Assembly (NCBI GenBank): GCA_027348115.1
Contig: DAIEQA010000109.1
Coordinates: 3,104 to 67,103, forward strand
From: Ignavibacteriales bacterium
GTDB taxonomy: Bacteria > Bacteroidota > Ignavibacteria > Ignavibacteriales > Melioribacteraceae
DNA length: 64,000 nucleotides
Direction: 5' to 3'
The position numbers and the translations under genes were made by a program. Shown here piece after piece: positions 7,057 to 62,444 of this stretch (the first letter of the stretch is position 1; every line of letters begins with the position of its first letter). The notes beneath the pieces are model-generated. The model worked only from the letters and a program-made list of their open reading frames with translations. It was not told the DNA's origin and made no database searches.

Positions 7057-7149
7057 GTCTTACCTCGTTTATTTGGTGATACTTTTTATTTCTCAGCAAG
7101 CTTGCGGAATAATGAGGAAGATTTTGACAATAAAAATCTTGTTTACAAA

Positions 7150-7495
7150 TGAATAATAGGCAAAAAAATTCTAAAAGAATACCCGTAAGAAGAACCTGAC
7201 GGTACAATATAAAGGCATAATGGATTATAATAAAAGTATAAAGCTGTAAAAGAAAGGTATGCAGAAAAATTAGAAAGATATTCTGCTTGTTAAGAACGGG
7301 ATACTAATTGATGAAAAAGGAATAACGGTTGCTTATAAAGATATTTTGGAAATTTATAAAGGAATATTTATTCATTAGAAAGGAATATCTGAGCTTTGTA
7401 AACAAGTAAAAGTTAAAAAAAACGATATAAACAGAAGAAAAAATGATATTCCCTTAAGATACAATGTTATTCATTCAAATTAGAAAGGGAAACCA
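7150..7495. repeat. Loose ~21-bp-phased A-rich unit array (possible relative of the 35.5-kb array)
   Basis: No credible ORF in 7057-7573. Units of 19-24 nt end in AAAGG/AAAAG/AAGAA. TTAGAAAG recurs at 7270, 7375 and 7480, which is exact 105-bp steps. Confidence 0.4.
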
Positions 7496-7573
7496 ACCAT
7501 GCTGAATCGCAAAAGTGCAGTATTGCGGAAGGCAGTTGTGCTTTATCGGAATTCGTTTCACCTCATGACAAGT

Positions 7574-9823
7574 TTATTTGAGCAGAAGAAATTTCTTTGT
7601 CTGGCTGAATGATCCGCTTTGCAATCTGTAAAAGTAAACACCGCTAGTTAATTTGCTTCCGTCAAATGTAACCTGGTAATTACCGGGGGATTTTTGTTCG
7701 TTGACGAGAGTTGCGATTTCTCGACCGAGTACGTCGTAAACTTTAAGTGTAACCGACCTCACCCTTTGTCCCTCTCCTTGCGAAGGAGAGGGAATTGAAA
7801 ATTGTATTGTTGTTGTTGGGTTGAATGGGTTGGGGTAGTTTTGAGATAAATCTATGTGATTTGTTAAAGATGAATTACTTCCATTTTTAACCGAAGTAAT
7901 TAAATCATTCTTTAAAATGGTAAATCCGTAAGAACCTTGAGATAGAAAAATTAAATTACCTTCAACGGTCAAATTAATAGCAATAGCTTTTCCCAAAGTG
8001 TAGCAACCCGTTTCAAAAGCATTAACCGGATTAGTAATATCAAAGACTACTAAACCTCGTGTATCATCCAAAACATACAAATAATTACCATCCCGTAAAA
8101 TTTTTCGGACATAAGTTGAATGATTGTTAAAAGTAGAAATATTCGAGTAATCATTCTTGTTCAGCATACTAATGCCGCTCTTGCCCTGTGCAATAAAAAT
8201 AACCGAATCTTTTACGGTAATGTCCTCCACCGAACCAATTTGATTAACATTTTTTATTAACTCTGGCAAATTGGGATTAGTAATATCATATACATAAAAT
8301 CCCATTGTATCAGCTGCAAGAAAACATAATGAATCGTCAACAAGAATGCCGACACCCGATTTTTCAAAAGAATCATTATAAATTAATTTAGGATTAGTTG
8401 AATCCGAAATATCACATATCCAAAGTCCGTGAAATCTTGCCGCGATATAGGCATATTTGTCTTTCACTATAACTTTATTCCCCTCTACTTCATGAAACAA
8501 ACCTAATTCAATAAAATTATTTGCATCTGAAATATCAACTATTTGCAGACCGCATCCAGAACTCGGTGTGCTTGTAAGATATGCCAGATTATTTTTTATA
8601 AAAACAGATGTACTGTAAACATTGGGATAAGTTTGTACAAATTGTTTAGTGGTTCTTACGATATTATTTGGGTCGCTGTAATCAAAGCAATTTAGTCTGC
8701 TGCTTCCACATGAGGCATAAATTGTATTATTTGAAATAGAAATATCATTTATCGTATCCAATGTTTTGTAGGATGTTATTCCCTCCGGGTTATTCATATT
8801 TTTTAACGAATAAACAGATAATCCGTTACCGCCTCTAGAGAGGAATAAGTAATCTTTATACATGGCAACCGAATAACCATCGCTAGCGTAGATGTTAATC
8901 GTATTATACACATTTCCATCAATTGGATTTTTAGGAGTTGATGGATTCGAAATATCGTAAATCAACACGCCATCAGGGCCGTCATTGATATAGGAAAGAA
9001 CTAAAAGGGTATCTTTAATATATATATCTCTTGCTCTTGAGACCCAATCACCGGGGATATAAGCAGAAAAAGTTATTTTAGCAGATTTAGGTTCCGAGAT
9101 GTCAAGTACAAATAATTTACTGAGCCTCCAACTGAAAAAGCTATCATTATTTATGGTGCCAATATATGCATAGTTGTTCTTAATTTTGATAGTAACAGGA
9201 ACCTGATGATTTTCTAAAAAATTTGTTGACAACAAAGTTGGATTACTTTTTTGCTTCACATTTACTACCAATATGCCCCCGTTATCTCCGCATAAATAAG
9301 CAAGTGAATCGGAAACAAACAAATCGTTGAAATTAATAGGATTATCTAAATTAAAATTGGAAAGAGTTATTGGATAATTCAAATTTGATATGTCTATAAT
9401 ACTAAGACCGGCATCATCAGATATCACATAAGCTGTATTCTGCTGAATAAAAACTGCTTGTGTATTTCCATTTGACGGAATAAAGCTCTTTTGGAAAGGA
9501 GAAGTTGTATTGGAAAAATCTATTATGTACAATCCGCCAGTAGTTGCCGCGAATAACGTATTATCAGCCTGTACCAAATGGTTAATTAAGTAATCTCCGT
9601 GAAAGGTTGAAATTTTGTTAAGTGTATTATTACTAAAAAGAGTTATGTCTATGCTTGTTCCATTCCCAATAAAAATGATTGAATCTTTTGTCGCCACAGC
9701 ATAACTAGGTCCTTCTGAGTACTTACCGATGAACGACAAATTCTTTGAATCTTGTGCTGTTGCGGGTCTTATTAATATGAAAGTGATGAATAAGAATATT
9801 AATAACATTATGAATCGTTTCAT
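7574..9823 (-). CDS. LVIVD-repeat beta-propeller protein with T9SS C-terminal sorting domain
   Basis: Signal peptide and repeated GLSIIDISN / VLIYDISN / GLQIVDISD / GLVVFDITN (LVIVD repeat). The C-terminus [17 protein letters not shown] ... VYFYRL ... KKFLLLK is a Por_Secre_tail. Confidence 0.85.
7770..7792. repeat. Perfect palindrome CCCTCTCCTT-GCG-AAGGAGAGGG inside the T9SS sorting-domain coding sequence
   Basis: 10-bp stem with a 3-nt loop, read in frame as part of PSPSQGEGQ. An identical copy lies at 10033-10055. Confidence 0.85.
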
Positions 9824-9836
9824 ATAATTGCTCCCA

Positions 9837-11252
9837 TTATTTCATCAGTACAAATTTCTTTGTTTGGCTGAATGAACCTGCTTCCAATCTATAAAAGTAA
9901 ACTCCACTTGGTAGCTCGCTTCCATCGAAAGTTACCTGGTAATTGCCGGGAGATTTTTGTTCGTTGACGAGTGTGGAAATTTCTTGACCGAGTACGTCGT
10001 AAACTTTAAGTGTAACCAACCTCACCCTTTGTCCCTCTCCTTGCGAAGGAGAGGGAATTGAAAATTGTATTGTTGTTGTTGGGTTAAACGGGTTGGGGAA
10101 GTTTTGTTCTAAAATAAACTGATTTGGAATACTGGTCGATTGGTTGACGCCAGTTATTTTATCAACTACATGGATATAGACATAAGGTGAATCAACAAGC
10201 ATATTGAAATATTGATTGCGAGGCGGATAATTTATTTTATTGATGATTTGATTCTGCTGAAAGGAATAAATGTTAATAGAATCGTTCTCTGTAAATGTTA
10301 AGAAATTTTCTTGTGTATCTGTACCTAGGCTCGAGCCTAACGAAAGAATAATTTCTTTTTGTCCAAATGATAGATTATTTGAATTGAAATGCCGTCTTGC
10401 AAGATTCTGATCATCTATAAAATAAAGATAACCATTCTTAACAGTCCAAAACGATTGCCACGAATTAAATGAAAGAACATCGACCTTTACAAATGAAGAA
10501 TCTTTTAGCTTTTCAATAAATAGCGAGGGCGACCATTCAAAGCTTATAATTGACAATGAATCATTGAGAGAATAACATTTTTCCGGTGCGGCAAAGAAAG
10601 GTGATTCTACATCGGGAAAGGTTACTTTATTTTTTACGACTAGATTATTTTGCGAATCAAAATTTATGAGATAATAGGAATAACCATAATCATCCGTGGT
10701 AGTCGCAGCTAAGAGGTAATCATTGTGAATTCGACCTACAATATGTATTGGGGTTAACGAGGTTGAACCGTTATTTAAAGAGTATAGGGAATCAGAAGAT
10801 AAATAATATCCCGCATGACTTATGCAGTTGGTTAGTATTAAGCCTTTTTCTACGTTAAGAATATTAGCTGCTCCGGATAAGTAAGTTCCGGTTCCACATT
10901 CAGGGTAACGTCCGCCAAAAAGAGAAAATTCGTTGGAGGTGGAAGAATTAATTAATCTCATTTGAAAAGAAGAGGGTGGACCAATGGAGGTATTATATTC
11001 GTCGGTTGTAATCCTCTTAATAAAATACCGTGTTTTATTAAATGTAAAAATATTCTCGAATGCTTCCTGAGTCTTTCCCGAAGATGTGGTAATCGATTCC
11101 CAGTGTTCAACCCTGTCGTTAGTATCTACCGTACTCTGATAGAAATTAATTCTTAATAATGAGCCTTCAGTTACTGTCTGCTGGGAATAAATTGCATTAT
11201 AAAAAAGAATTATTAGAATGTTACAGTAAAAAAATATTTTGCTTTTAACCAT
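9837..11252 (-). CDS. Secreted hypothetical protein with T9SS C-terminal sorting domain
   Basis: ATG 11252 gives a good signal peptide ([25 protein letters not shown]). The C-terminal ~90 aa are nearly identical to the neighbouring gene's Por_Secre_tail. Confidence 0.75.
10033..10055. repeat. Second copy of the CCCTCTCCTT-GCG-AAGGAGAGGG palindrome inside a coding sequence
   Basis: Identical to 7770-7792. It lies within a 100-nt block (9986-10085 vs 7723-7822) that has a single mismatch. Confidence 0.85.
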
Positions 11253-11349
11253 TGTACCCCCGGGTACATTTTTAATTTCACAAACAAATAACAAAAATTT
11301 ACTGTAAAGGGCAATGAATAAAATTGTATTAATATTGCAGAAAATAGAA

Positions 11350-11373
11350 AGAGACGAGGCATGCCTCGTCTCT
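11350..11373 (-). terminator. Terminator hairpin downstream of aconitase
   Basis: 24-nt perfect palindrome AGAGACGAGGCATGCCTCGTCTCT, 10 nt past the TAA at 11384-11386, followed on the minus strand by a T-rich run. Confidence 0.7.
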
Positions 11374-11383
11374 ACAAGTGCGC

Positions 11384-13927
11384 TTATTTTTTCTTTTTAA
11401 CAACCTTTTTTGCTGCAACTTTCTTTGTCTTAGCTTTTGCTACTTTTATAGCTACTGCTTTTTTAACCACTTTCTTTACTACAGCCTTTTTAGCTTTCGC
11501 CGGTTTTTTAACAGCTGCTTTCTTTACAGCATTAACAGCTTTTTTAGCGGAAGCTTTTTTAACAACTTTCTTAGCTGCAGTTTTCTTTGCCGGTTTTGCT
11601 TTAACAACTTTTTTCTTAGCAACGGGTTTTATAGCAGCTTTCTTTACAACTTTTTTAACCGGTGCGGCTTTTTGGCTTTGAGCAATCAAATTTAATGCGC
11701 CGCCGGCTTTGAACCATTCAATCTGTCCTGCATTGAAAGAATGATTCAGCCAAATTTCTTCTGTGCTGCCGTCTTTGTGTTTAATTATTAACTGCAATTG
11801 TTTTTCCGGTGCGAAATCATTTAATCCTACAAGACTAAGTGTGTCGTCTTCCTGGATTTTATCGTAATCACTTGGATCGGAGAAAGTTAAAGGAAGCATA
11901 CCTTGTTTCTTTAGATTGGTTTCGTGAATACGCGCGAAACTCTTTGTGATAATTGCTTTGCCGCCGAGAAAGCGCGGTTCCATTGCTGCATGTTCGCGCG
12001 ACGAACCTTCTCCGTAGTTTTCATCTCCTACAACCACCCAGCCGATTGCCTGGGCTTTGTATTCGCGTGCAACTTCGTGAACCGGTTGATAATATTCGGT
12101 AAACTGATTTTTTGCTTGGCCGGGTTTTCCGGTAAATGCGTTGATGGCGCCAAGAAACATATTCTTGGAAATATTATCGAGATGTCCGCGGAATTTAAGC
12201 CATGAACCCGCCGGCGAGATATGATCTGTAGTGCATTTGCCTTTTGCTTTAAGTAGCAGCGGCATATCAGTAAAATCTTTTCCGTTCCATGGCTTGAACT
12301 GTTCCATAAATTCGAGACGTTCGCTTTGCGCAGGCATTTTAATTTCAGTTTTGAATCCGTCTTTTGAAGGAGCGAGAAAACCTTTTGTGTCCTTCATGAA
12401 ACCTTGAGCGGGTAATTCATCTCCGTACGGAGGATCAAGCTTTACCTGTTCGCCGTTTTCGTTTGTTAAGTAGTCTGTTTCGGGATTGAACGAAAGACTA
12501 CCCGCGATTGCGAGAGCAGTTACTAATTCTGGACTGGCGACAAACGAAAGCGTTTCCGGATTGTTATCGTTTCTCTTTGCAAAATTTCTGTTGAATGAAT
12601 TTACAATAGTGTTTCTTTCACCGATTGATATATCCATTCTTTTCCACATACCGATGCAAGGACCGCAAGCGTTGGCAAGGACTTGTCCGCCAAATTCAGT
12701 GAGGGTTTGCAATTGTCCGTCGCGTTCAATTGTTGCGCGGACTTGTTCTGAACCCGGAGTAATTTTGAATTCGGATTTTGCTTTTAATCCTTTAGCCAAT
12801 GCTTGACGAGCGATGTTTGCAGAGCGGTCGATATCTTCGTAGCTCGAATTTGTGCAGCTTCCGATTAAAGCAACGCTGATTTTATCCGGATAGTTATTTG
12901 CGACAACATCTTCTTTCATTCTCGAAATCGGGTGAGCGAGATCCGGAGTAAACGGACCATTAAGATATGGCTCAAGTTCATTTAAATCGATTTCAATTAC
13001 CTGGTCATAATATTTTGATGGATCGGCATAAACTTCATGATCGGCTTTTAAGACATCCGCAAGCTGAGTCGCGAGTTTAGCAACGTCGGCGCGATCAGTC
13101 TTTGTTAAGTAAGCAGCCATCTTTTCATCAAAAGGAAATATAGAACATGTTGCGCCAACTTCAGCACCCATGTTGCAAATAGTTGCTTTGCCGGTACCGG
13201 AAATTGAATCGGCGCCTTCGCCGAAATATTCTACAATAGCACCGGTTCCTCCTTTAACGGTAAGAAGTCCGGCAACTTTAAGAATAACATCTTTTGGAGA
13301 GGTCCAGCCGGATAATTTACCGGTAAGATGAACGCCGATAAGTTTTGGCCATTTTAATTCCCAGGGCATTCCGGCCATAACGTCAACTACATCCGCACCA
13401 CCGACTCCGATTGCGATCATTCCAAGTCCGCCTGCATTTGGAGTATGAGAATCAGAACCGATCATCATCCCGCCGGGGAAGGCGTAATTTTCCAGAATTA
13501 CCTGGTGAATAATTCCGGCGCCGGGTTTCCAGAATCCGACTCCGTATTTTTGACAGATACTTTCGAGGAACTCATAAACTTCTCTGTTTTCATCGATAGC
13601 TTTTTCGAGGTCTTCCTTCGATCCGTTTTGCGCCACGATTAAGTGATCGGCATGAGCAGTGGCAGGTACAGCGGCACTTTTTCTGCCGGCATGCATAAAT
13701 TGCAGCATAGCCATTTGAGCGGTCGCGTCTTGCATTGCAACTCGGTCCGGCGCGAATTCGGCAAAAGCTTTGCCTCTATCTAATTCTCCTTTTGCAGGTT
13801 CCCAAAGATGTGAGTATAGAATTTTTTCGGCGTAAGTTAATGGTCTTCCGACAACTTTACGTGCATGCTCAACTTTATCTCTAAAACCCGCATAAACTTT
13901 TTGAATCATATCAAAGTTAGCAGTCAT
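11384..13927 (-). CDS. acn: Aconitate hydratase (mitochondrial-type, ~750-aa core) with a ~95-aa Lys/Ala/Val-rich histone-H1-like C-terminal tail
   Basis: Full-length aconitase motifs are present ([53 protein letters not shown]). The core ends near ...[11 protein letters not shown] and continues in frame as [21 protein letters not shown]...KKVVKKKK. Confidence 0.93.
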
Positions 13928-13999
13928 TTTATTTCCTTATGTGGTTAATTATTTTAAGATGTACAAAGATAAAAAATTTTCAAATGATTGTATTGTATC

Positions 14000-14022
14000 G
14001 TAGGGTCGAGGTTTCCTCGACC
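14000..14022. repeat. REP hairpin GTAGGGTCGAGG-TTT-CCTCGACC
   Basis: 8-bp stem GGTCGAGG/CCTCGACC, upstream of the RAYT gene. Confidence 0.8.
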
Positions 14023-14079
14023 GAATGTTTATATACTTCAAATTATTCACGTGGTCGGCTACATTTTGGCGTTAGCAAT

Positions 14080-14106
14080 GTAGGTTCGACGTGACGTCGA
14101 CCCTAC
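14080..14106. repeat. REP variant hairpin GTAGGTTCGACG-TGA-CGTCGACCCTAC
   Basis: Long imperfect palindrome with the same GTAGG...CCTAC ends, upstream of the RAYT gene. Confidence 0.75.
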
Positions 14107-14167
14107 AACATTCAATTTGAAATATATTTTTGAATGGAATACATTTACCTAAACATTGCACAACGTT

Positions 14168-14677
14168 ATGCTAGAACGTAAAAGAACACGTCTCAAGGAG
14201 TTTGATTATTCTTCTTCCAACTACTATTTTATTACAATATGTACGCAGAATAAAATATCATTGTTTGGTAATGTAAACAATGAGACCCTCTTGCTGAATG
14301 GAATAGGTGAAATTGTTAAAAAATGCTGGTTGGAGATAAAAGAACATTTTACCAATATCGATTTGGATGAATTCGTAATAATGCCTAATCATTTCCATGG
14401 AATAATAATTATTGATGGCATTGTAGGGTTGAGGTCTCCTCAACCCGATGCAATCACAAAACAGTTTTCGTTAAGCCAAATCGTGGCATATTTCAAGTAT
14501 CAATCTACTAGAAAAGTAAATGAACAACGCCCTGCAGCAAATGGCAAAGTTTGGCAAAGATCATTTTACGATCGGATCATTAGGAATGAAAAAGAATTAT
14601 ATATGATTAGGAATTATATAAGATATAATGCATCGAAATGGAATGATGTTTTAGGCGAAGAGAATCTTGAGTTATAA
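14168..14677 (+). CDS. REP-associated tyrosine transposase (RAYT, IS200/IS605-like Y1 HUH enzyme)
   Basis: YFITICTQNK, HUH motif MPNHFHGIII, and a C-terminal YIRYNASKW tyrosine region. Flanked by REP hairpins. ATG 14168 lies inside ORF 14156..14677. Confidence 0.85.
   Translation: MLERKRTRLKEFDYSSSNYYFITICTQNKISLFGNVNNETLLLNGIGEIVKKCWLEIKEHFTNIDLDEFVIMPNHFHGIIIIDGIVGLRSPQPDAITKQFSLSQIVAYFKYQSTRKVNEQRPAANGKVWQRSFYDRIIRNEKELYMIRNYIRYNASKWNDVLGEENLEL
14423..14446. repeat. REP-like hairpin embedded in the RAYT coding sequence
   Basis: GTAGGGTTGAGG-TCT-CCTCAACCC copies the flanking REP, with paired C>T / G>A changes that keep the stem. It encodes VGLRSPQP. Confidence 0.6.
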
Positions 14678-14692
14678 AATTATTTTAACTAA

Positions 14693-14717
14693 AGGGTCGA
14701 GGAGACCTCGACCCTAC
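14693..14717. repeat. REP hairpin AGGGTCGAGG-AGA-CCTCGACCCTAC
   Basis: 9-bp stem filling the 41-nt gap between the convergent RAYT and tex stops. Probably also serves as a terminator. Confidence 0.8.
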
Positions 14718-14718
14718 A

Positions 14719-16890
14719 TTAATTAATCATGCTTAATGATATACGCTGCTTCTGCACATCCACTGAAAGGATTGTCACGTCAATAATGTCACCAACTTTT
14801 AAGAGTTCGAGCGGATTCTTCACATACTTATTCGCGATTTGTGAAATATGAAGAAGCCCATCCTGCTTTACGCCGATATCTACGAACGCGCCAAAATCAA
14901 CTACGTTACGGACAGTACCTTTTAGTTTCATACCCGGCTGCAAGTCTTCCATTTTCAAAACATCGCTGCGCAAGATCTGCTTAGGCATTTCATCGCGCGG
15001 GTCGCGGCCGGGTTTTTTCAAGTTATCTAAAATATCCTTCAACGTCGGTTCACCGACTCCAACTTCTTCGGCAACTTTTTTTACACCCTTGGTTTTTACG
15101 TAAAGCTCAACGAGATTTCCTTTTTCATTAATGTGAGTAGTAGAGAGTTCGCATAGTTTTAAAAGTTTTGTTGTTGCTTCATAAGATTCGGGATGTATAG
15201 AAGTATTATCCAGCGGGTTTTCGCCTTCACGGATTCTTAAAAATCCGGCGCACTGTTCAAAAGCTTTTTCACCTATGCCGGATACTTCCATAAGTTCTTT
15301 GCGATTTTTGAATCTTCCGGTTTTATCACGGTACTTGATAACATTATTGGCAATTCGTTTGTTGAGTCCGGAAACATAATTAAGCAGTGAAGCTGAAGCG
15401 GTATTAACATCTACACCAACGAAATTAACGCAGCTTTCAACAACATCATCCAATTTTTTTGAAAGTAATTTTTGATCGACATCATGCTGGTAAAGTCCAA
15501 CGCCTATTGATTTCGGATCAATCTTTACAAGCTCAGCGAGAGGATCAAGCACGCGTCGGGCGATTGAAATATTTCCGCGCTGACTCGCTTCAAGATCCGG
15601 GAATTCTTCTTTAGCAACCGGACTTGCAGAGTAAACCGAGGCACCGGCTTCATTCACAATAAGGTAATGGCAATCCAATTTATTTTCTTTGATTAACTCA
15701 GCAACCATTAATTCCGTTTCCCTGCTGGCCGTGCCGTTGCCAATTGCGATTAATTTTACTTCATACTTATTAACTAGTTGCAGAATAGTTTTTTTTGCGT
15801 CAGCCATTTTATTCTGCGGAGGATGCGGATAAATTGTAATTCCTTCCAGGTATTTCCCGGTTGTATCTATAACCGCAAGTTTGGAACCGGAGACGTAACC
15901 CGGGTCGATTCCCAGAATATTTTTACTGTTAATCGGTGGCTGAAGGAGCAGCTGGCGTAGGTTTGCCGCGAATATTTCTATGGCGTGAAGATCGGAAATC
16001 TCGCTAAGCTGGTTGCGTACGTCGCGTTCAATTGAAGGATAAATTAACCGCATGAAAGAATCTTCGGTTACTTCCTCAAGTATATCGAGGAAAGCGGATT
16101 CATCATAAGTAAAATATTTATCAAAAATAATATTAAGAACCGCGGGCTGATCGAAGCTTAATACTACTTTTAGGAACGTTTCCTTCTCGCCGCGGTTGAG
16201 CGCGAGCACCTGGTAAGGTTTTATTTTGTTTATCTGGCAAGAAAAATTATGATAGACTTCATAAACATCTTTTTTGCCCGCTTTAAGTTCTTCTTTCTTT
16301 GCTTCGGCTTTTGAAGAAACAACGGAAGCTTCCTCAAGCAGAAAATCTCGGACAGCCTGGCGAACATCGGCGCTTTCGCTTATCATTTCCGCGATGATAT
16401 CCTTAGCGCCTTGAAGAGCTTCATCAATATTGTTTACGCCCAACTCAATGTTGATATACTTTTCAAGCTCTTTGTCAAAATCACCTTTGAAATTTGGATT
16501 TTCAATTATGAACAACGCAAGAGGTTCTAATCCTTTTGCCTTTGCGATTGTTCCACGCGTTTTGCGTTTTGGTTTGTAAGGAAGATATAAATCTTCAACT
16601 TCCTGAAGCTTTATAGCTGCCAGAATTTTATCTCTTAGTTCATCGGTTAACTTGCCTTGCTCTTCTATGCTTTTCAAAACAGTCTGTTTTCTTTCTTCAA
16701 GAATTGTAAGGTAGCTCAGTCTGTCCTCAATCTGGCGGAGAAAATCTTCATCAAGTCCGCCCGTGTGTTCTTTACGGTAACGAGCGATGAAAGGAACCGT
16801 AGCTCCTTCGCTGAATAAATTTATAACTGTCTTAACCTGTTTTTCGAGAACGTTTAATTCTTTTGCTATAACTAAAGGAATGTTCATCAA
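14719..16890 (-). CDS. tex: Tex-like RNA-binding transcription accessory protein
   Basis: N-terminal Tex HTH (ATVPFIARYRKE), a YqgF/RuvC-like centre, HhH repeats, and a C-terminal S1 domain (GMKLKGTVRNVVDFGAFVDIG). Confidence 0.92.
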   Translation of the reverse strand: MMNIPLVIAKELNVLEKQVKTVINLFSEGATVPFIARYRKEHTGGLDEDFLRQIEDRLSYLTILEERKQTVLKSIEEQGKLTDELRDKILAAIKLQEVEDLYLPYKPKRKTRGTIAKAKGLEPLALFIIENPNFKGDFDKELEKYINIELGVNNIDEALQGAKDIIAEMISESADVRQAVRDFLLEEASVVSSKAEAKKEELKAGKKDVYEVYHNFSCQINKIKPYQVLALNRGEKETFLKVVLSFDQPAVLNIIFDKYFTYDESAFLDILEEVTEDSFMRLIYPSIERDVRNQLSEISDLHAIEIFAANLRQLLLQPPINSKNILGIDPGYVSGSKLAVIDTTGKYLEGITIYPHPPQNKMADAKKTILQLVNKYEVKLIAIGNGTASRETELMVAELIKENKLDCHYLIVNEAGASVYSASPVAKEEFPDLEASQRGNISIARRVLDPLAELVKIDPKSIGVGLYQHDVDQKLLSKKLDDVVESCVNFVGVDVNTASASLLNYVSGLNKRIANNVIKYRDKTGRFKNRKELMEVSGIGEKAFEQCAGFLRIREGENPLDNTSIHPESYEATTKLLKLCELSTTHINEKGNLVELYVKTKGVKKVAEEVGVGEPTLKDILDNLKKPGRDPRDEMPKQILRSDVLKMEDLQPGMKLKGTVRNVVDFGAFVDIGVKQDGLLHISQIANKYVKNPLELLKVGDIIDVTILSVDVQKQRISLSMIN

Positions 16891-29800: not shown

Positions 29801-30388
29801 ATGACTAAGTTCCTTTCCTCCGTTTTTATTCTTCTTATTGGCTTTCTAAATTCCAACGCTCAAACTAAATGGGTGATAGATAAAGCTCATTCAAAAGTAC
29901 TGTTTTCAGTTACACACCTTTTAATTTCGGAAGTAACCGGCGAGTTTAAAAGTTTTGACGGCGATATAGAAGCTGCAAAAGATGATTTTTCCGACGCGAA
30001 AATAAATTTCTCCGTGGATATCAGCAGTATAAATACGGATAATGAACAGCGCGATAAGCATTTAAAATCCGACGATTTTTTTAATGCAGAGAAATTTCCT
30101 AAAATGACTTTTGCCGGAAAATCGATGCAGAAGCTCGGAGATAATAAGTATAAACTTACCGGCGATCTAACCATTAGGGATGTTACAAAACAAATTACAC
30201 TGGATGTAGTGTTGAACGGCATTATAAAAGATCCGTGGGGAAATACAAAAGCGGGATTTAAAGTCACCGGCGACATCAACCGCTTTGATTATAATCTTAA
30301 ATGGAATGCGCTGATGGAAACCGGCGGGGCTGTCGTTGGTAAAATAGTTCATTTAACGGTTAACCTTGAATTGCAAAAATCAAAATGA
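29801..30388 (+). CDS. YceI-family polyisoprenoid-binding periplasmic protein
   Basis: WVIDKAHSKVLFSVTHLLISEVTGEFKSFDG is the YceI signature. Signal peptide present. Confidence 0.85.
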   Translation: MTKFLSSVFILLIGFLNSNAQTKWVIDKAHSKVLFSVTHLLISEVTGEFKSFDGDIEAAKDDFSDAKINFSVDISSINTDNEQRDKHLKSDDFFNAEKFPKMTFAGKSMQKLGDNKYKLTGDLTIRDVTKQITLDVVLNGIIKDPWGNTKAGFKVTGDINRFDYNLKWNALMETGGAVVGKIVHLTVNLELQKSK

Positions 30389-30834
30389 GAATAGAAGAAG
30401 AAATAAAACAAACTAAGTTTCGAAACGAACATCACAAACTTGCCGTTAATCTTATATTCTCTTATAACTGGTTTGTGAAACTGCATTCTGAGCTTTTAGC
30501 CAAGTATAACATTACGATCAATCAATTCAACATACTAAGAATATTACGCGGCCAGCATCCTCAGCCCGCAACGGTTAATTTATTACGCGAAAGAATGATG
30601 GATAAAATGTGCGACGCTTCCCGTCTGGTGGAACGTTTGAGAATTAAAGGATGGATTAAAAGAGAATCCAGTTTCGAAGATAGGAGACGCGTTGATGTAA
30701 GTATAACCGATGAAGGTCTCAAACTTCTTGCAGAGATTGACAAAGAAAATGAAAATCAGGATTCAATCTTTAATAAATTATCTTCTGAAGAAGCCGCGAA
30801 TCTCAATATGCTCTTAGACAAACTTCGCGGATAA
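30385..30834 (+). CDS. MarR-family transcriptional regulator
   Basis: Winged-helix region FNILRILRGQHPQPATVNLLRERM ... RRRVDVSITDEGL. 4-nt ATGA overlap with the yceI-like gene. Confidence 0.8.
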   Translation: MRIEEEIKQTKFRNEHHKLAVNLIFSYNWFVKLHSELLAKYNITINQFNILRILRGQHPQPATVNLLRERMMDKMCDASRLVERLRIKGWIKRESSFEDRRRVDVSITDEGLKLLAEIDKENENQDSIFNKLSSEEAANLNMLLDKLRG

Positions 30835-33290: not shown

Positions 33291-35441
33291 ATGACAGCTC
33301 CCGCAAAATCAGCCAAATTATTTTTTGTCTTTTTGTTTCTCCTTTTAGTCGCAAACGGATTAAATGCCCAATCAATTTACGAACCGAGAGATTTATCCAA
33401 AGTAAAATGGTCATATTCCGATTTCGGAAAGATGTGGACTTTCGACTCCGTTCCCGTGGATAGTTTTAAAAACGAATACGGTTTTAGACCTTCACAGCAA
33501 TGGCTCGACGACGTACAAATGTCCGCGCTCCAGTTTTCGAGCTTTTGTTCCGCCGCATTTGTTTCTGCCGACGGGTTGATAATGACAAATCACCACTGCG
33601 GAAGACATTGGCTGCCGGGTCTTTCACCAAAAGGCGAGGATTATCTTCGCGATGGATTCTACGCCAAAACTTTGAACGATGAAATAAAGGTGCCCAGCGC
33701 CTACGTCGATCAGTTGATAAGTATTGTTGATGTAACAAAGGATGTTTTAGATACAATGAATCCGGGCAAGGACAGTATGGAAAAAATTATGCTGCGCGAT
33801 TCCAAGATTAAAGAGATCGAAAATAAATTTTCTTCGGAGACCGGCCTTGTATGCAAAGTTGTTCAGCTTTACAACGGAAGAAAATATTCTTTGTACGAAT
33901 ACAAACGCTATTCCGATATTCGTCTTGTTATGGCGCCAGATTTTCAAATAGCTTCCACCGGGTGGGATTGGGATAATTTTACATACCCGCGCTACGAACT
34001 CGATTTTATGTTCTTCCGCGCTTACGAAAACAACAAACCGGTTAAATGCGAGCATTATTTCAAATGGAGTAAAAAGGGAGCGCAAGAAGGCGAACCTATC
34101 TTTGTAATCGGGAGACCCGGAAGCACTCAGCGGCTAGCAACAATTTCCGAAATGGAATTCCTTAAAGACAAGATTTATAACTTCAACCTGAAATTTTATA
34201 ACGAAATTTATAAAGTTTATTACGATCTTTTTAAAACAAGAAAGGAAAATCATTCCGAACTTTTGAATATGGTAATGGGAATTGGCAATGCAAGAAAATC
34301 TTACGCGGGAAGGTATATGGCTTTGCGCGACGAATACATTATGGCTAAGAAAAAAAGTTTTGAAGAAGACTTTCGGCAAAAAGTAAAAGTCGATCCCGAT
34401 CTTGAAAAGGAATACGGAACCGTATGGCAGGCAATTACGGATAATATTAACGAGGAGAGAAAAATAATAGACGAGTATTCGGCATTAATGATGGGGCAGC
34501 GTATAAAAATTCCTTTTACAACAGCGGCAATCAACGCAATAAAATTTGCCAACCAGATGAAGCTTCCCGCAGAAGATAGAGAAAACGCATACAAACCCGA
34601 TTCCCTGGACGCGACAATTCAAAAACTTTATCCTAAAGATATCGACGCGCAAAGAGACTCGATGCTTCTTGGCGCGCTTGTAAATTTTTTAAATTACGTT
34701 CTCCCTGCAGATCATTTTATTCGCAAGGATATTTTTAACGAAAAGACCGGCAGCGATGCAGTAAAGTACTTGCTGATAAATTCAAACCTTTCCTCAAAAG
34801 AAAAATTTATGAAATTTTTAAAGGATACAAAGCCGGAAGAAATACTAAACTCATCCGATCCCTTTATTAAGATGGTTCAATTCGGTTATAAACGGCGCGC
34901 GGAATTGGATCCGCAATTCAAAGAAATTGAAAATACTCTGGAAGTATTAAACCAGATGCTCGGCCAGGCGGCGTATAAAGTTTACGGAGATAAAATTCCG
35001 CCCGATGCAACTTCCACGTTAAGAATTTCCAACGGAAGAATAGAAGGTTATGAATATAACGGCACCATCGCTCCGGGCAAAACAACTTTTTACGGAATGT
35101 ACGACCGTTGGAATTCTTTCGGCAGGAAAGAATATCCTTGGGGGCTTCATCCCCGATGGCAAAAAATTCCTGAAGGATTCGATCTCTCGCTTCCTGTAGG
35201 TTTTGCCTCGACAAACGATATTGTGGGCGGTAATTCCGGTAGCTCGGTTATAAATGAAAATAAAGAAGTTGTCGGTTTGGTTCACGACGGCAACCTTGAA
35301 AGTCTTGCCGGCGATTTTATTTTCTTGCCGGAAAATAACCGTACGGTTGCAACCGACTCTTACGGATTAATCGAAGCGCTTCATTATTATTTTAAGGCGG
35401 ACCGGCTTGTTAACGAGTTGAGAAACAGCAAAATAGAATAA
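33291..35441 (+). CDS. S46 family dipeptidyl-peptidase, tandem paralogue
   Basis: Same MTNHHC / GRPGSTQR / GGNSGS motifs. Colinear with the upstream paralogue at moderate identity. Confidence 0.88.
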   Translation: MTAPAKSAKLFFVFLFLLLVANGLNAQSIYEPRDLSKVKWSYSDFGKMWTFDSVPVDSFKNEYGFRPSQQWLDDVQMSALQFSSFCSAAFVSADGLIMTNHHCGRHWLPGLSPKGEDYLRDGFYAKTLNDEIKVPSAYVDQLISIVDVTKDVLDTMNPGKDSMEKIMLRDSKIKEIENKFSSETGLVCKVVQLYNGRKYSLYEYKRYSDIRLVMAPDFQIASTGWDWDNFTYPRYELDFMFFRAYENNKPVKCEHYFKWSKKGAQEGEPIFVIGRPGSTQRLATISEMEFLKDKIYNFNLKFYNEIYKVYYDLFKTRKENHSELLNMVMGIGNARKSYAGRYMALRDEYIMAKKKSFEEDFRQKVKVDPDLEKEYGTVWQAITDNINEERKIIDEYSALMMGQRIKIPFTTAAINAIKFANQMKLPAEDRENAYKPDSLDATIQKLYPKDIDAQRDSMLLGALVNFLNYVLPADHFIRKDIFNEKTGSDAVKYLLINSNLSSKEKFMKFLKDTKPEEILNSSDPFIKMVQFGYKRRAELDPQFKEIENTLEVLNQMLGQAAYKVYGDKIPPDATSTLRISNGRIEGYEYNGTIAPGKTTFYGMYDRWNSFGRKEYPWGLHPRWQKIPEGFDLSLPVGFASTNDIVGGNSGSSVINENKEVVGLVHDGNLESLAGDFIFLPENNRTVATDSYGLIEALHYYFKADRLVNELRNSKIE

Positions 35442-35499
35442 TTAATTCTAATTACCGGCAACAAACATTATTCGGTTTGTCTCAAAAGAAAATTTAACC

Positions 35500-35915
35500 G
35501 ATGCCCGCTTTTTAAAATATGCCGTTTTTATAAAGAGAACATTCCATTTCTTATTGTGAAAACGGCATTTTCTATTAAAAATCTCGGTTTAATTATAAAA
35601 ACTCCCGGGCTTCTATTAGAATGTAGCGAGTTTCTATTAGGGGGTCGCGATTTTCAATTTAAATATCGTAGTTTAATAATAGGTGTTCATTAATTTCAAT
35701 TAGAAAGTAATCAATTCTTATTAACGGTTCCCTATTTCCTATTAGAATATTATGGTTTCATAATAAGAACTTGCGGATTTCAATTAGAACGCTGCAATTT
35801 CTTATTGAATAAACGCGATTGTCCATTTAAATATCCCGGTTCAATAATAATAATGAGCAAGCTTTATTTATAATTTCGCAGTTTCTTTTAGGAAAATCTA
35901 GGTTGTTTATATAAT
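35500..35915. repeat. Array of about 18-20 tandem ~21-bp units with conserved box tTTCtATTAGAA (palindromic core TTCTAnTAGAA)
   Basis: Unit ends fall at 35560, 35580, 35600, 35621, 35642, 35663, 35683, 35705, 35725, 35747, 35769, 35789, 35809, 35832, 35852, 35873, 35894 and 35914. Stops occur in all frames. Confidence 0.8.
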
Positions 35916-36233
35916 GATCGTTGTTTTTTCAACCGAAACAATGAATTCGGAAGAGAAAAGGTGTTATTCATTTAGCTTAGAGATTATTCGATTTAAAATT
36001 CCCCGAATTTCCGGATTGTTAATCCGTAATAAACCTTCTAAATTATAACAGCGCATATTTTTATATAAAAATGTTTTCGACAATTACATGGTTTTTTAAT
36101 GGTGTTAATCAATGAAAAGCAATGATTCGACGGCGGCGCACAATTTTTGAATTTGATTTGTTCTTTTTGAAACTTTTTTGCTGCAAATTAAATTTATTAA
36201 GACTGGAGCGAGATATAGCAAGAAAGGGAATTT

Positions 36234-36434
36234 ATGCAGATCAATACAACACCGAATTCGCCGTGTAATAAAGACTGCATTATGGATCAGGAAACACACT
36301 ATTGTAAAGGTTGTTACCGCACTATTGAAGAAATAATTAGGTGGCAGTTTTTAACGACCGAAGAAAAAAATAATATTCTTGTGCTTACAGAGCAGCGTAA
36401 GAAATCGATTAATATAAATCATCATCCCTCATAA
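36234..36434 (+). CDS. DUF1289 family small Cys-rich protein
   Basis: SPCNKDCIMDQETHYCKGCYRTIEEIIRW matches the DUF1289 pattern. Confidence 0.7.
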   Translation: MQINTTPNSPCNKDCIMDQETHYCKGCYRTIEEIIRWQFLTTEEKNNILVLTEQRKKSININHHPS

Positions 36435-36967
36435 TGAAAAAGTTAGATCGAGGATTTGTTCAAGTCTATACCGGAAACGGGAAAGGAAAAACCACGGCGG
36501 CAATTGGGCAAGCTGTTCGTGCAGCCGGTGCGGGATTGAAGTCTTATATAATTCAATTTATGAAGGAATATCCGTACAGCGAAATGAATTCGTTGAAAAA
36601 TTTAAGCGAGTGGATTACAATTGAACAAATTTGCGGCGATGATTTTGTATTAAAAAAAGTACCGCCGCCCGCAAGCGAAATTGATAAAGCCAAGACTGCA
36701 TTAGCAAATGTTAAACGAAAGATGACGGAAGGTTTGTACGATTTAATAGTATTGGATGAAGTCTGTGTTTCGATTTATTTCGGCTTAGTTACCGAATCCG
36801 ACGTTTTACTGCTGATAGATTCCAAACCAAACAATGTGGAATTAATTCTTACAGGAAGATACTGCCCGCAGTCGATAATTGATAAAGCTGATCTTGTAAC
36901 GGAAATGAAAGAAGTGAAACATTATTATGCAGAGGGCGTACTTGCCAGGAAGGGAATAGAATCCTGA
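36434..36967 (+). CDS. cobO: Cob(I)yrinic acid a,c-diamide / cob(I)alamin adenosyltransferase
   Basis: VQVYTGNGKGKTTAAIGQAVRAAGAGL P-loop region is typical of CobO/BtuR. Its start overlaps the upstream stop by 1 nt. Confidence 0.88.
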   Translation: MKKLDRGFVQVYTGNGKGKTTAAIGQAVRAAGAGLKSYIIQFMKEYPYSEMNSLKNLSEWITIEQICGDDFVLKKVPPPASEIDKAKTALANVKRKMTEGLYDLIVLDEVCVSIYFGLVTESDVLLLIDSKPNNVELILTGRYCPQSIIDKADLVTEMKEVKHYYAEGVLARKGIES

Positions 36968-52854: not shown

Positions 52855-54436
52855 ATGAACCAAGAATTAATTACGATAAAAGAAGCAAGTGAATGGATTA
52901 GTATTCAACTGAAGAAGGATATCACTCCGTCAAATATTTCTTATTTAGTTAATTATGGAAGAATCAAAAAATTTTCAGATAATGGTAACACCCTTGTAAG
53001 CAAAAAGGAGTTGATTCGCTATTATGATTCGTATTATGGGAATCGACAAATCAACTGGAAAGAAAAACTCGGAAATGACATAGATTGGCATTTATCATTC
53101 GAGCAATACAAGGAATTTCAAACTACTAAACATGTCCATCGACTTCATCCATATAAAGGTAAATTCATTCCGCAACTAGTGGAATATTTTCTGGATGATC
53201 ACACGGATGAATTTAAAAAGGAAGTTTATTTCAACAAAGGAGATATCGTTCTCGATCCATTTTGTGGAAGCGGAACAACTCTAGTACAAGCTAATGAACT
53301 TGGGATGAATTGTCTTGGCGTTGATATTTCATCTTTTAATTCATTGATGAGTAATGCCAAAATTGGTAAGTATAATTTATTTGAGCTAAAAATTGAGATA
53401 CAAAAAATCACAGAGGAGTTACGACAATTTATTTATGACTCCAAGACAGTAAAGTTTGAGAAAGAGTTGCTTGATAAACTCTCGAAGTTTAATAATGAAT
53501 ATTTTCCTTCTCCAGAATACAAGCTAAGGATAAACAATGATGAAATAGATGAAAAAGAATACGGGAAAGCAAAGGAAAATGAATTTCTCCCTATCTATAA
53601 AAAATTAGTTAAAGAGTTTGAAATTGAATTAAAGCAAGGGAAATCAGATACTTTTTTAGATAAATGGTTTCTTCAACAAGTTAGATCAGAAATAGAGTTC
53701 GTTTTCGATTTGATAAAAAAAAATAAAGATCCCGGAAATAAAAAAAATTGTATCTATCATTCTCAGTCGTACTATTCGTTCTTGTCGCGCAACAACTCAT
53801 TCTGACTTAGCAACACTTCTTGAGCCAATAACAACAACGTATTATTGTTCTAAGCATGGGAAGATTTGCAAGCCATTGTTTTCAATATTAAGCTGGTGGG
53901 AAAGGTACTCCATTGACACTCTGAAACGTCTTACTGAATTTAATAAATTAAGAACGAATACATATCAGCATTGCATTACGGGCGATAGTAGGGAAATCAA
54001 TTTGTTCTCTGCAATTGAAAAAGTTAATCCGGGTTTTGCCAAACAAATTAAAGATCAAAAGATCAGCGGAATATTTTCTAGTCCACCATACGTTGGTTTG
54101 ATTAATTATCATGAGCAACATGCTTACGCTTACGATTTGTTCGGTTTAAAAAGAAAAGACGAATTAGAAATAGGACCACTTTTCAAAGGACAGGGAAGTG
54201 AGGCAAAGAAATCATATATCGAAGGGATATCAGCTGTATTAATTAATTGTAAAAAGTATTTAAAAGAAGATTATAATGTTTTTCTTGTTGCTAATGATAA
54301 ATATGATATGTACACAAAGATTGCAGAAAAATCCGGGATGAGAATAGTCCAACAGTTCAAACGGCCTGTACTGAACAGAACTGAAAAAGACAAAGCTGCG
54401 TACTCAGAAAGTATATTTCATTTCAAGGGGAACTAA
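52855..54436 (+). pseudogene. Type II DNA methyltransferase (amino-MTase, SPPY type, N-terminal HTH) split by a 1-nt frameshift in A9/A8 tracts
   Basis: ORF 52855..53805 carries HPYKGKF and VLDPFCGSGTT (motif I). ORF 53876..54436, in a different frame, carries SSPPY (motif IV). That second frame is open back to about 53717 and reads IVSIILSRTIRSCRATTHSDLATL. Confidence 0.8.
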
Positions 54437-55492
54437 ATGGACTCATTAAAAAAAGAAAAAATTGCTTTGGAGGTAGTTAAAACTGTAAAATCAAAATTCG
54501 ATGATTTTCCAGAAGATGCCTCAAATAATCGTAATGCACCATTCCATGAAGCTTTTCTAAATGCATTTAAATTGAGAATTGAACATTATGTAACTGATAT
54601 ACCAATTTTTGTGAGCCTCGCAAGTTGGATGCATGGTTTGAATACTCGCTTAGGTCAATCATTTTTTGAAAAAACAGCTCACATACTTTGCGACGGCGAG
54701 AAAAGAAAATTCGCAAATCTTAAGATAAACGATCATCAGCAATCAGTGATTAACGGGATAATAGCTTCATGTAAGAATTCAACTCGTTTGCCAAACTTAT
54801 TTTCTGAAAATGAAGAAATTTACTTGAAACTTGATGTCGGAGAAATCGACGCACCAAACTTTTCAGCAGATGTATTCTTTGAAGATGAAACAAGTTTGAC
54901 TTTAATTGAGCTAAAGACAGTCAAACCTAATAGTGATGTTTTTAAAGAGCAGAAAAGTAAATTCTTGAATGGAAAAGCTGCTTTGAAAAATAGATTTCCA
55001 GCGAAAGAAATTCATTTTTATCTTGGTTTTCCATTTGATCCACTGCATAAAGAAAAATGTGGTTATGATAAAAAGCGTTTTTTCGATTATAGTGTTGACT
55101 TCAAAAAATATTTTGCAAATGAAGAAGTTTTACTTTCAAACGAACTTTGGGATTTCCTTTCACAAGAGAAAAATACCATGGAAGATATTCTAGAAATTAT
55201 TAATAAAATTGCACAACCTGATTTCATGGATAAATTTGATTTTATTAATGATGTAAAAAACATCGCAGTAGATAAAGGGAAATACAAAGCAATCCTATCT
55301 GATTGGTTCATGAAAAGGGAACTTGTGATGCTGGATCATTATGATAAGATTAAAGTTGCGGCAAAGGAGGATAAAAGACTTCAAAGAGTTCTATCACAAA
55401 ATTTATTTGATTCTGAAAATGAGTATAAGGAAAACCGAATTCTTTCGTTATTAAGTGTCTTAAATAAAATTGATTTCTCAAATATGGCTTGA
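54437..55492 (+). CDS. Putative type II restriction endonuclease (PD-(D/E)xK candidate)
   Basis: The ATG immediately follows the MTase TAA. Candidate catalytic core is SADVFFEDETSLTLIELKT (D ... ExK). The family (possibly TdeIII-like) is not verifiable here. Confidence 0.6.
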   Translation: MDSLKKEKIALEVVKTVKSKFDDFPEDASNNRNAPFHEAFLNAFKLRIEHYVTDIPIFVSLASWMHGLNTRLGQSFFEKTAHILCDGEKRKFANLKINDHQQSVINGIIASCKNSTRLPNLFSENEEIYLKLDVGEIDAPNFSADVFFEDETSLTLIELKTVKPNSDVFKEQKSKFLNGKAALKNRFPAKEIHFYLGFPFDPLHKEKCGYDKKRFFDYSVDFKKYFANEEVLLSNELWDFLSQEKNTMEDILEIINKIAQPDFMDKFDFINDVKNIAVDKGKYKAILSDWFMKRELVMLDHYDKIKVAAKEDKRLQRVLSQNLFDSENEYKENRILSLLSVLNKIDFSNMA

Positions 55493-56009: not shown

Positions 56010-57428
<1,419 letters not shown>

Positions 57429-61991: not shown

Positions 61992-62444
61992 TTATTCCAA
62001 GTCTTTCTTCATGCAGATACTGTGCGGCATGTTTGCATATTGACCGAAGTTTGGAATTCTTGAATACCCGCTCTTCTCGTAGAGACCAAGGGCTTCATGT
62101 TGATAAACTCCGGTTTCTAAAATTGCGCTTGCATAACCCAACTGTTTTGCCCATGCTTCTAGTTCGCTAAGTACAAGTTTGGAAATTCCTCTGCCGCGGA
62201 ATTCACTCTTAACAAACATTCTCTTTATCTCGATGGTTTTATCGTCGTATTTTTTGAAGCATCCGCAGCCCGCCGCCGAATCATCGTCATGCGCTACAAC
62301 AACGGTATCAATATAATCGATTACATTGTATTGATCATATACTTCCTGATCTTTGCCGTAACGGCCGTTTAAATCTTTATCCAATTCAACAATCAGTTTT
62401 CTGAAGTCCGCATTATCACTGGTTGTCCTTTTCACCAGTATCAT
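61992..62444 (-). CDS. GNAT family N-acetyltransferase
   Basis: Acetyl-CoA motif A context RGRGISKLVLSELEAWAKQLGY. Confidence 0.85.
   Translation of the reverse strand: MILVKRTTSDNADFRKLIVELDKDLNGRYGKDQEVYDQYNVIDYIDTVVVAHDDDSAAGCGCFKKYDDKTIEIKRMFVKSEFRGRGISKLVLSELEAWAKQLGYASAILETGVYQHEALGLYEKSGYSRIPNFGQYANMPHSICMKKDLE

Follow-up and report, generated by a model that had tools for sequence, protein, structure and literature searches.

What is the tandem repeat that occupies much of the gap between a peptidase gene and a corrinoid adenosyltransferase operon in a member of the Ignavibacteriales? The DNA analysed here, referred to below as the window, is 64,000 nucleotides long and belongs to contig DAIEQA010000109.1 (assembly GCA_027348115.1). 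The gap in question (35441–36234) separates the second of two S46 peptidase genes from the DUF1289-cobO operon. An earlier note, made from the sequence alone, had described in it about 18–20 tandem units of ~21 bp and had likened them to plasmid iterons and partition centromeres. We consider below whether this array (array 1) is real, how its unit is built, which other arrays it resembles and what it might be for.

Periodicity of array 1

The array and its best-aligned part are delimited as follows.

35527–35929, no strand assigned: array 1, ~18–19 abutting 21-bp units (maximal lag-21 segment, score 27.1)
35548–35925: in-register core of array 1, 18 units of 21 bp in one register

Over positions 35500–35930, the fraction of bases matching at lag 21 is 0.473 (z = 8.1), that at lag 42 is 0.470 (z = 7.95) and that at lag 84 is 0.556 (z = 10.5), the last exceeding the lag-21 signal. 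The null for all lag scores consisted of 500 dinucleotide-preserving shuffles, among which the top z reached was 4.4. Fourier power of an A/T indicator at 21 bp was 23.0, compared to the 99th-percentile shuffle value of 4.8. With both peaks standing above the shuffles, the tandem units reported in the earlier note are real. Their length, given there as 20–23 nt, has to be corrected: when the sequence is written in rows of 21 from position 35548, all 18 units stack in a single register, and the period is therefore exactly 21. Divergence between units is roughly 40–50%, yet the period is kept over all 18 of them; Tandem Repeats Finder reports just 2.3 copies because the units are degenerate.

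The gap contains no open reading frame (ORF) longer than 64 aa and has stops in all frames, which rules out coding heptad repeats as the source of array 1. Clustered regularly interspaced short palindromic repeats (CRISPR) are likewise rejected, as these need repeats of 23–50 bp and unique spacers, whereas the units of array 1 are 21 bp long and abut without spacers; on both counts our analysis agrees with the earlier note. A scan of the whole window at lags 4–199 found only two strongly periodic loci, array 1 and positions 7168–7513, each with a period of 21. Array 1 is a real, non-coding, head-to-tail array of ~18 units.

Unit, symmetry and higher-order repeat

Two sets of repeats within array 1 are needed to describe its anatomy.

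35611–35862 (copies at 35611, 35695 and 35779), no strand assigned: the three best 84-bp copies, a repeat family with 84/84 spacing
35611–35621, 35695–35705 and 35779–35789, no strand assigned: the exact box TTCNATTAGAA, in copies exactly 84 bp apart

The position frequency matrix of the units reads TTCTATTAGAA-aaTCgCGgTT. The less conserved half has a consensus of its own, AATCGCGATT, which is itself palindromic; the G/C-containing segment that had been taken for variable is not free, its consensus being the palindrome AAtCGCGaTT. The complete consensus, TTCTATTAGAA-AATCGCGATT, is equivalent to a 21-bp palindrome, CGATTTTCTA-T-TAGAAAATCG. When the unit is compared with its own reverse complement, the similarity is 0.75; 2000 column permutations gave 0.376 ± 0.084 and never exceeded 0.717. 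Dyad centres recur every 10.5 bp, and the 42-bp arms around them are 50–64% complementary, the background being 26 ± 7% with a maximum of 52% among 4000 random centres. The dyad symmetry that the earlier note had attributed to an AT-rich box is thus genuine, but the palindromy extends to the whole unit, and an 84-bp higher-order repeat had been missed. The simplest description of array 1 is a series of tandem 21-bp palindromes, operator-sized and abutting without spacers.

The 84-bp repeat comprises four units, with copies starting at 35527, 35611, 35695, 35779 and 35863. The three central copies are 61–64% identical pairwise and each consists of four diverged 21-bp subunits, A to D, of which D resembles the reverse complement of B, so that the two form inverted repeats; the terminal copies are only 39–54% identical to the others. 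Among the central copies, conservation is 0.73 in box columns and 0.51 in spacer columns, and unit positions 5–7 are invariant. The exact box TTCNATTAGAA is present in just three of the 18 units. Of two perfect boxes proposed at 35611 and 35633, the former is exact, whereas the latter is in fact TTCTATTAGGG at 35632. With one mismatch allowed, the box matches the window 17 times (13.6 expected), eight of these matches falling within the array, and it is not enriched elsewhere in the 64-kb window.

Array 1 might instead be purely structural, that is, intrinsically curved DNA needing no specific protein. AA/TT dinucleotides do have a Fourier power of 10.1 at 10.5 bp, and the edges of the array (35491–35660 and 35781–35940) are among the most curved 147-bp segments, with a ratio of 0.765 at 35501–35511. 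The array body (35580–35750), however, is less curved than the average, its end-to-end/contour ratio being 0.97–0.99 versus a window mean of 0.949 in a wedge model (with parameters that are reportedly those of Bolshoy et al. 1991), and the dyad-related alternating A- and T-tracts cancel each other. We consider a purely structural role very improbable.

A second 21-bp array adjoins an HTH_26 gene

The other strongly periodic locus lies next to a gene for a small DNA-binding protein.

7168–7513, minus strand: array 2, ~15–16 direct 21-bp units with the minus-strand box ATAT(y)CCTTT(c/a)TAA
6685–7056, minus strand: XRE/HTH_26 gene (123 aa), immediately downstream of array 2 (Pfam HTH_26, E = 3.2e-10)

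A looser relative of array 1 had been suspected at 7150–7495; it is real and has the same 21-bp period. No other locus of the window reaches its lag-21 match (0.515–0.553). Its units lack palindromy, self-complement similarity being 0.28 versus a null of 0.26. Array 2 is situated between the stop of a gene for an LVIVD protein with a type IX secretion system (T9SS) tail and the start of the HTH_26 gene. The statement that no cognate gene was in sight consequently holds for array 1 and fails for array 2, the predicted cognate protein of which is the product of the adjoining gene, as yet a candidate. Orthologous modules occur in the window and in two further loci, L172 (85% protein identity) and L086 (64%), with the box TAT-yC-TTT kept and the spacers changed. 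A structural model of the HTH_26 protein (mean pLDDT 77) places the predicted recognition helix at residues 29–37, and searches by structure and against solved structures returned generic XRE folds only, e.g. SaPI2 Stl and C-proteins.

A weaker periodicity, at lags 15, 27, 69 and 96, was observed at about 11190–11700, around the gap that separates the aconitase gene from a T9SS-tail gene. Near the same gap there is a local excess of the array-2 box motif (17 hits in 400 bp at 11162).

The HTH_26 gene and a 21-bp array form a conserved module

A word-index search retrieved 29 homologues of the HTH_26 protein, and among 1.84 billion representatives, 636 clusters (50% identity) match the family at E ≤ 1e-10, nearly all of them with lengths of 111–125 aa. 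Using an alignment of 22 family members, we retrieved 80 metagenomic loci (L088–L167). When each locus is searched over its whole length at lags 6–63, the strongest periodicity is 21, 42 or 63 in nearly every case and lies 180–450 bp upstream of the gene start. For 75 family loci the upstream sequence was long enough to be scored. At a fixed score threshold, 71 of these have an array no more than 700 bp ahead of the gene, with a period of 21 bp in 64 loci and of 42 bp in 7, whereas none of 368 control windows taken elsewhere in the same loci reaches that threshold. Restricting the lags to 10–49, the best one is 21 in 53 loci, 42 in 21 and 41 in one.

The gene-linked arrays have a median of 11.6 units (range 5–21) and a median gap to the start codon of 35 bp, the gene starting roughly 0–130 bp downstream of the array. 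They are AT-rich and non-coding, higher-order repeats of 42, 63 or 84 bp are common, and most are asymmetric direct repeats (median palindromy z of 0.05; only that of L099 is clearly palindromic). The genes around them are housekeeping genes of diverse kinds, among which no partner is conserved, and the family is essentially absent from viral contigs, where four weak generic matches were obtained.

Unit sequences are completely different between loci, and proteins that share a variable segment share the core of the array. Thus, the core is TCGrTAAAAyAT in the 'SRDNAYRIV' group of proteins, TTCTnACAAAAnCAAAAA in the 'ITYQMAH' group and AAATATTG.ATATTT in the 'SSASATRIAGG' group. The variable segment is the predicted recognition helix and the least conserved part of the N-terminal domain. 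In pairs matched for divergence of the rest of the protein, array similarity takes values of 0.36, 0.38, 0.52 and 0.81 with rising identity of the helix segment, the top bin holding only four pairs and phylogeny being not fully controlled. These patterns suggest that each family protein would bind its own upstream array. The constancy of a two-turn period across unrelated unit sequences points to a constraint imposed by duplex geometry.

No description of the pairing was found in Rfam, NCBIfam, PADLOC, PHROGs or the searchable literature. The family is annotated only by the generic label 'Xre'; the defence, NCBIfam and PHROG libraries contain nothing specific for it, and a search of twenty family loci against Rfam returned only a tRNA. 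The association of HTH_26 genes with 21-bp arrays is apparently widespread and undescribed, and this conserved module, to which array 2 belongs, is the larger result of the present analysis. A giant tandem-repeat relative was also encountered: in P0199, a protein of 2693 aa, the conserved second half of the HTH_26-family domain is matched at 21 separate places.

Array 1 is specific to one lineage

The features on either side of array 1 are listed below.

33291–35441, plus strand: second S46 peptidase gene, the upstream neighbour (Pfam Peptidase_S46, E = 6.8e-174)
35513–35574, plus strand: long imperfect hairpin ATGCCGTTTTTATAAAGAGAA / TTCTTATTGTGAAAACGGCAT followed by the T-run TTTTCTATT (inverted repeat and minimum-free-energy structure)
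35930–36233, plus strand: AT-rich, non-repetitive spacer of about 300 bp between array 1 and DUF1289
36234–36434, plus strand: DUF1289, first gene of the downstream operon (Pfam)
36434–36967, plus strand: cobO/btuR corrinoid adenosyltransferase gene, in an operon with DUF1289 (Pfam)

Judging from its sequence, the hairpin at 35513–35574, which overlaps the first, degenerate units of array 1, probably terminates transcription of the S46 peptidase gene; a simple terminator scan missed it, as its loop exceeds 8 nt. The spacer, which presumably carries the DUF1289-cobO promoter, has no homologue in the relatives and no blastn match to any compared locus.

In two relatives, L004 and L007, the S46 proteins of which are 74–80% identical to that of the window, the S46 stop is separated from DUF1289 by no more than about 120 bp, within which there is a terminator hairpin of the ordinary kind, and in the contig of a third relative, for which the gene table alone was used, the corresponding gap is 123 bp. 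It follows that the whole 790-bp gap, array 1 included, is lineage-specific, and array 1 would have arisen or been inserted recently. Its flanking genes are housekeeping genes that are syntenic in the relatives, and nothing else in any compared locus resembles the gap by blastn. The closest relative found, L086 (S46 protein 86% identical), has a T9SS-tail gene, a 21-bp array (match 0.61) and an HTH_26 gene directly downstream of the S46 gene (L086 1–3821). The window counterpart of this module is located 28 kb from the S46 gene and on the other strand (6853–7848 versus 33705–35431), which indicates a rearrangement junction at the very spot where array 1 sits.

Three further contigs of the same species, about 99.9% identical and near-clonal, carry array 1 unchanged, save three clustered single-nucleotide polymorphisms in one of them. 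These (C>T, A>C, A>C) are the sole differences between that 2.8-kb contig, L002, and the window, and they lie at 35667–35676, within 10 bp of one array 1 unit; the cluster could be due to local repeat conversion or to an assembly artefact.

A possible orphan operator-like array

Array 1 has in common with the HTH_26-linked class the 21-bp period, the number of units, the AT-rich non-coding sequence and the higher-order repeats, and one gene-linked array, that of L099, is palindromic as well. Given the missing family gene and the symmetric unit, we regard array 1 as an orphan that shares the architecture of this class without being a demonstrated member of it. The HTH_26 protein encoded in the window was rejected as its binder, the unit matrices of the two arrays being dissimilar and enrichment of the array-2 box in array 1 not significant.

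We lean, tentatively and somewhat short of thinking it probable, towards the view that array 1 is an orphan, operator-like array bound by a dimeric protein at two-turn spacing. Each of its ~18 contiguous 21-bp palindromic sites, with half-sites CGATTTTCTA and TAGAAAATCG, is as large as a complete operator of a dimeric protein of the helix-turn-helix or winged-helix type. As site centres are exactly two helical turns apart, all dimers would be placed on the same face of the DNA, and adjacent dimers would touch, so that about 380 bp could be coated cooperatively between the S46 peptidase terminator and the DUF1289-cobO promoter region. The coated tract might serve as a high-capacity protein sink; alternatively, it might form a barrier or a platform for silencing the operon that follows. 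The binder would be encoded elsewhere, outside the window, and would most likely be an HTH_26-family paralogue or else another dimeric regulator. The anatomy and symmetry of array 1, its restriction to one lineage and the association of gene and array in array 2 and its family are shown by the data; protein binding to array 1, the identity of the binder and the regulatory effect are what we infer. Dyads phased by two helical turns, to which the earlier note had already drawn attention, are what one would expect of sites to which a dimeric protein binds cooperatively; dyads every 10.5 bp are expected for dimer operators and are not needed by a strand-specific RNA element, which supports the binding of a protein. 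Also in favour of this view are the exact period kept over 18 diverged units, the stronger conservation of box columns compared to spacer columns, the 21-bp period that array 1 has in common with array 2, and the association and co-variation of genes and arrays seen throughout the HTH_26 family.

Several observations weigh against an operator-like array of this class. No family gene or remnant of one lies beside array 1 (35.4–36.3 kb), and tblastn with 22 family members detected no paralogue elsewhere in the window. The symmetric unit of array 1 differs from the mostly asymmetric direct repeats of the gene-linked class and ranks only 53rd of 66 arrays in similarity to the unit of array 2. The array-2 box occurs eight times in array 1 versus four expected, which corresponds to the 95th percentile of 400-bp windows and is not significant. 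Other orphan AT-rich arrays are absent from 467 kb of family loci, making array 1 atypical for the class. Evidence of selection is wanting too: the same-species contigs provide no test of it because they are near-clonal, the absence of array 1 from the locus in three relatives leaves no orthologous conservation by which selection could be demonstrated, and AT-biased mutation could explain, without selection, why the AT box is conserved above the G/C spacer.

Much of the same evidence bears on the main alternative, namely that array 1 is a non-functional relic subject to neutral drift, either an ancient minisatellite or what remains of an HTH_26 module that lost its gene, or had it moved, in a local rearrangement. 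Its absence at the same locus in three relatives, the degeneracy of its units (exact box in 3/18, terminal higher-order copies 39–54% identical), the lack of an adjacent family gene or remnant, and the presence in L086 of a T9SS-tail/array/HTH module after the S46 gene, which makes the spot a rearrangement junction involving such modules, would all be in keeping with this. On the other hand, both the exact 21-bp register and the palindromy have been retained across the array despite heavy substitution, the box is conserved better than the spacer, and array 1 is dissimilar in sequence to array 2 and to the L086 array, hence not simply a piece of a module left behind. A relic appears to us possible but rather unlikely.

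Palindromic units might also act as RNA, array 1 being a transcribed repeat in the 3' untranslated region of the S46 mRNA or in a long DUF1289-cobO leader, where it would form serial hairpins or, like a CsrB-type sponge, offer repeated motifs to an RNA-binding protein. The plus strand folds at −104.2 kcal/mol versus −80.7 kcal/mol for shuffles (z = −4.4), the minus strand has a z of −2.9, and hairpins bracket the array on both sides (35513–35574 and about 35919–35945). However, the surplus folding energy follows automatically from palindromic units and is seen on both strands, and a probable S46 terminator stands at the 5' edge of the array. Furthermore, symmetry about two alternating centres would be without rationale in an array of single-stranded motifs, and the strict two-helical-turn periods across the unrelated units of gene-linked arrays point to the geometry of duplex DNA. 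Rfam 15 yielded no match at the gathering threshold anywhere in the window; at E ≤ 1, a search of the regions of both arrays assigned no family to array 1, and the two hits obtained are at chance level and lie beyond the array body. An identity with a known structured RNA, which the earlier note had named as an outcome that would overturn its proposal, was thus not found, and we regard an RNA function as improbable.

Chromosomal context

By their best matches, the proteins encoded here belong to an organism among the Ignavibacteria or Melioribacteraceae-like bacteria. In the Pfam scan, which covered 51 window ORFs and left out a few larger ones (61992–62444, among others), the window presented itself as chromosomal housekeeping DNA, with genes for aconitase, Tex, cbb3 oxidase, shikimate pathway enzymes and queC/queF, together with a type II restriction-modification pair and an IS200-like Y1 transposase. 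Among these 51 ORFs there is no rep, par, integrase or relaxase gene and no gene for ParA, ParM, TubZ or a ParB-like protein, in agreement with the chromosomal setting recognised in the earlier note. The gap 35441–36234 contains no DnaA box TTATCCACA at up to one mismatch, and cumulative GC skew rises smoothly and monotonically through the site, without an inflection at array 1.

This context bears on the possibility that array 1 consists of plasmid-type iterons, or is a partition centromere or replication origin, on an integrated element. Iterons are 17–22 bp long with about 22-bp phasing, so the period and unit size of array 1 do resemble them, and the length of the array recalls sopC or parC. 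Against this stand the missing rep, par, integrase and relaxase genes, the lack of a DnaA box and of a skew inflection, the absence of blastn matches to 72,556 plasmids or 50,697 phages, and flanks composed of housekeeping genes in synteny with the relatives. The proposal is largely refuted, and we find it scarcely credible for array 1; the analogy drawn in the earlier note captures the geometry of the array but assigns it to the wrong family.

The Y1 transposase brings up another origin for palindromic repeats, as bacterial interspersed mosaic elements (BIMEs) are intergenic arrays of palindromic units at gene 3' ends. Array 1 could accordingly be a cluster of repetitive extragenic palindromes (REPs) or BIME-like palindromes spread by this IS200-like REP-associated tyrosine transposase (RAYT; 14156–14677), which is flanked by REP-like hairpins. 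Yet the hairpins by the RAYT gene are GC-rich, with a GTAG head (GTAGGGTCGAGG...CCTCGACCCTAC), and have nothing in common with the AT-rich unit of array 1, the box of which is not dispersed elsewhere in the window. A REP/BIME identity of array 1 is refuted on sequence, and we attach next to no probability to it. Region 13990–14720 itself looks like a RAYT with its REP elements, GC-rich GTAG-head hairpins occurring at 14000–14717, with one copy inside the transposase gene.

Three other features of the window may be recorded. A gene for a MarR/SarA-Rot-like regulator (30385–30834) lies between yceI and the two S46 peptidase genes, and relative L004 is without it at that place; with no similar box found upstream of its own operon, this regulator is not considered a likely binder of array 1. 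Between queC and queF there is a low-GC island (52855–55492, about 33%) containing a DNA methylase gene (N6_N4_Mtase), an unassigned ORF of 186 aa and a gene for a TdeIII-type restriction endonuclease. A beta-eliminating lyase appears to be split into two ORFs (56040–56489 and 56595–57428), which may reflect a frameshift or a pseudogene.

Comparison with known repeat systems

Like the iterons of P1 (incC/incA), R6K and RK2 and the 12-mers of Vibrio chromosome 2, array 1 consists of ~20-bp tandem sites at two-turn phasing, the multiple copies of which would bind one protein cooperatively. Repeats of the array 2 type, moreover, either overlap the promoter of the gene for their putative binder or directly precede it, an arrangement also seen for iterons and rep. 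Unlike iterons, array 1 lacks a Rep initiator, a DnaA box, an unwinding element and a replicon context; it has 18 copies rather than 3–9, its units abut and are fully palindromic, and its sister arrays are linked to an XRE helix-turn-helix protein of 120 aa, not to a winged-helix Rep.

Centromere repeats include F sopC (12 × 43 bp), R1 parC (10 × 11 bp) and pSK41 parC (20-bp repeats). Such centromeres are long regular arrays, similar to array 1 in repeat number, on which a small DNA-binding protein, by coating the repeats, builds a higher-order nucleoprotein structure. In contrast to them, array 1 is chromosomal and lineage-specific and has no gene for a ParA/ParM/TubZ motor or a centromere-binding protein next to it, and the gene-linked arrays have heterogeneous housekeeping neighbours. 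The multi-operator systems of phage and XRE repressors (lambda OR/OL, SinR operators, C-protein boxes) comprise palindromes of 14–21 bp bound by cooperative helix-turn-helix dimers, as proposed here for array 1, but their operators are two to six in number and irregularly spaced, compared to ~18 abutting palindromes in strict register. The RNA repeats of type III toxin-antitoxin systems (ToxI-like) require near-identical repeats of ~35 nt, a terminator and a toxin gene; with units that are 21 bp long, degenerate and palindromic, and with DUF1289 and cobO downstream, such an identity is ruled out.

In order to find arrays built on the same box, 185,579 genomes were searched with a pattern of two boxes 21 bp apart. 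This resulted in 50 hits, the source genome not being among them, and three of the hits, all in Firmicutes and with the box TTCTATTAG(A), were long non-coding 21-bp arrays. In a metagenome-assembled genome of the Eubacteriales (L055, 3941–4214), 17 near-perfect units follow sufB, whereas the arrays of Lederbergia (L076, 1769–2040) and Bacillus (L077, 619–760) have an invariant TTCTATTAG box with variable 12-bp spacers and share a conserved location, with a fucU-like gene on one side and moxR on the other. In all three arrays the bases flanking the box are not those of array 1, and no neighbouring gene is shared. Since box and spacing were both prescribed by the search pattern, we take these three arrays as a lead and do not count them as relatives. 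In viral contigs the same pattern gave 22 hits, all single, the three most periodic of which lay in coding sequence. Literature searches on the box, on 21-bp repeats and on HTH_26/Xre proteins with repeats returned nothing relevant, one of the matches being a primer sequence.

Implications

Arrays of sites with this geometry are known mainly from plasmid origins and centromeres, and here they occur in an ordinary chromosomal setting. Array 2, for its part, has brought to light a pairing of gene and array that is maintained in many uncultured bacteria. It is conceivable, though doubtful at present, that arrays 1 and 2 both belong to an as yet undescribed chromosomal system of Ignavibacteria-like bacteria, in which small XRE/HTH_26 proteins with fast-evolving recognition helices are matched to 21-bp arrays of 8–20 sites and orphan arrays are the sites of paralogues acting in trans. 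If so, orphan arrays could be sinks, barriers or chromosome-organising anchors, and the system would be a plasmid-independent counterpart of iteron and centromere arrays. Should the proteins indeed coat their arrays, the family would offer naturally occurring protein-operator pairs that are orthogonal to one another and have a readable recognition code, as well as a case of rapid co-evolution between recognition helix and repeat, possibly together with a new form of local chromosome or promoter control. Array 1 would then be the first orphan example and a test of action in trans.

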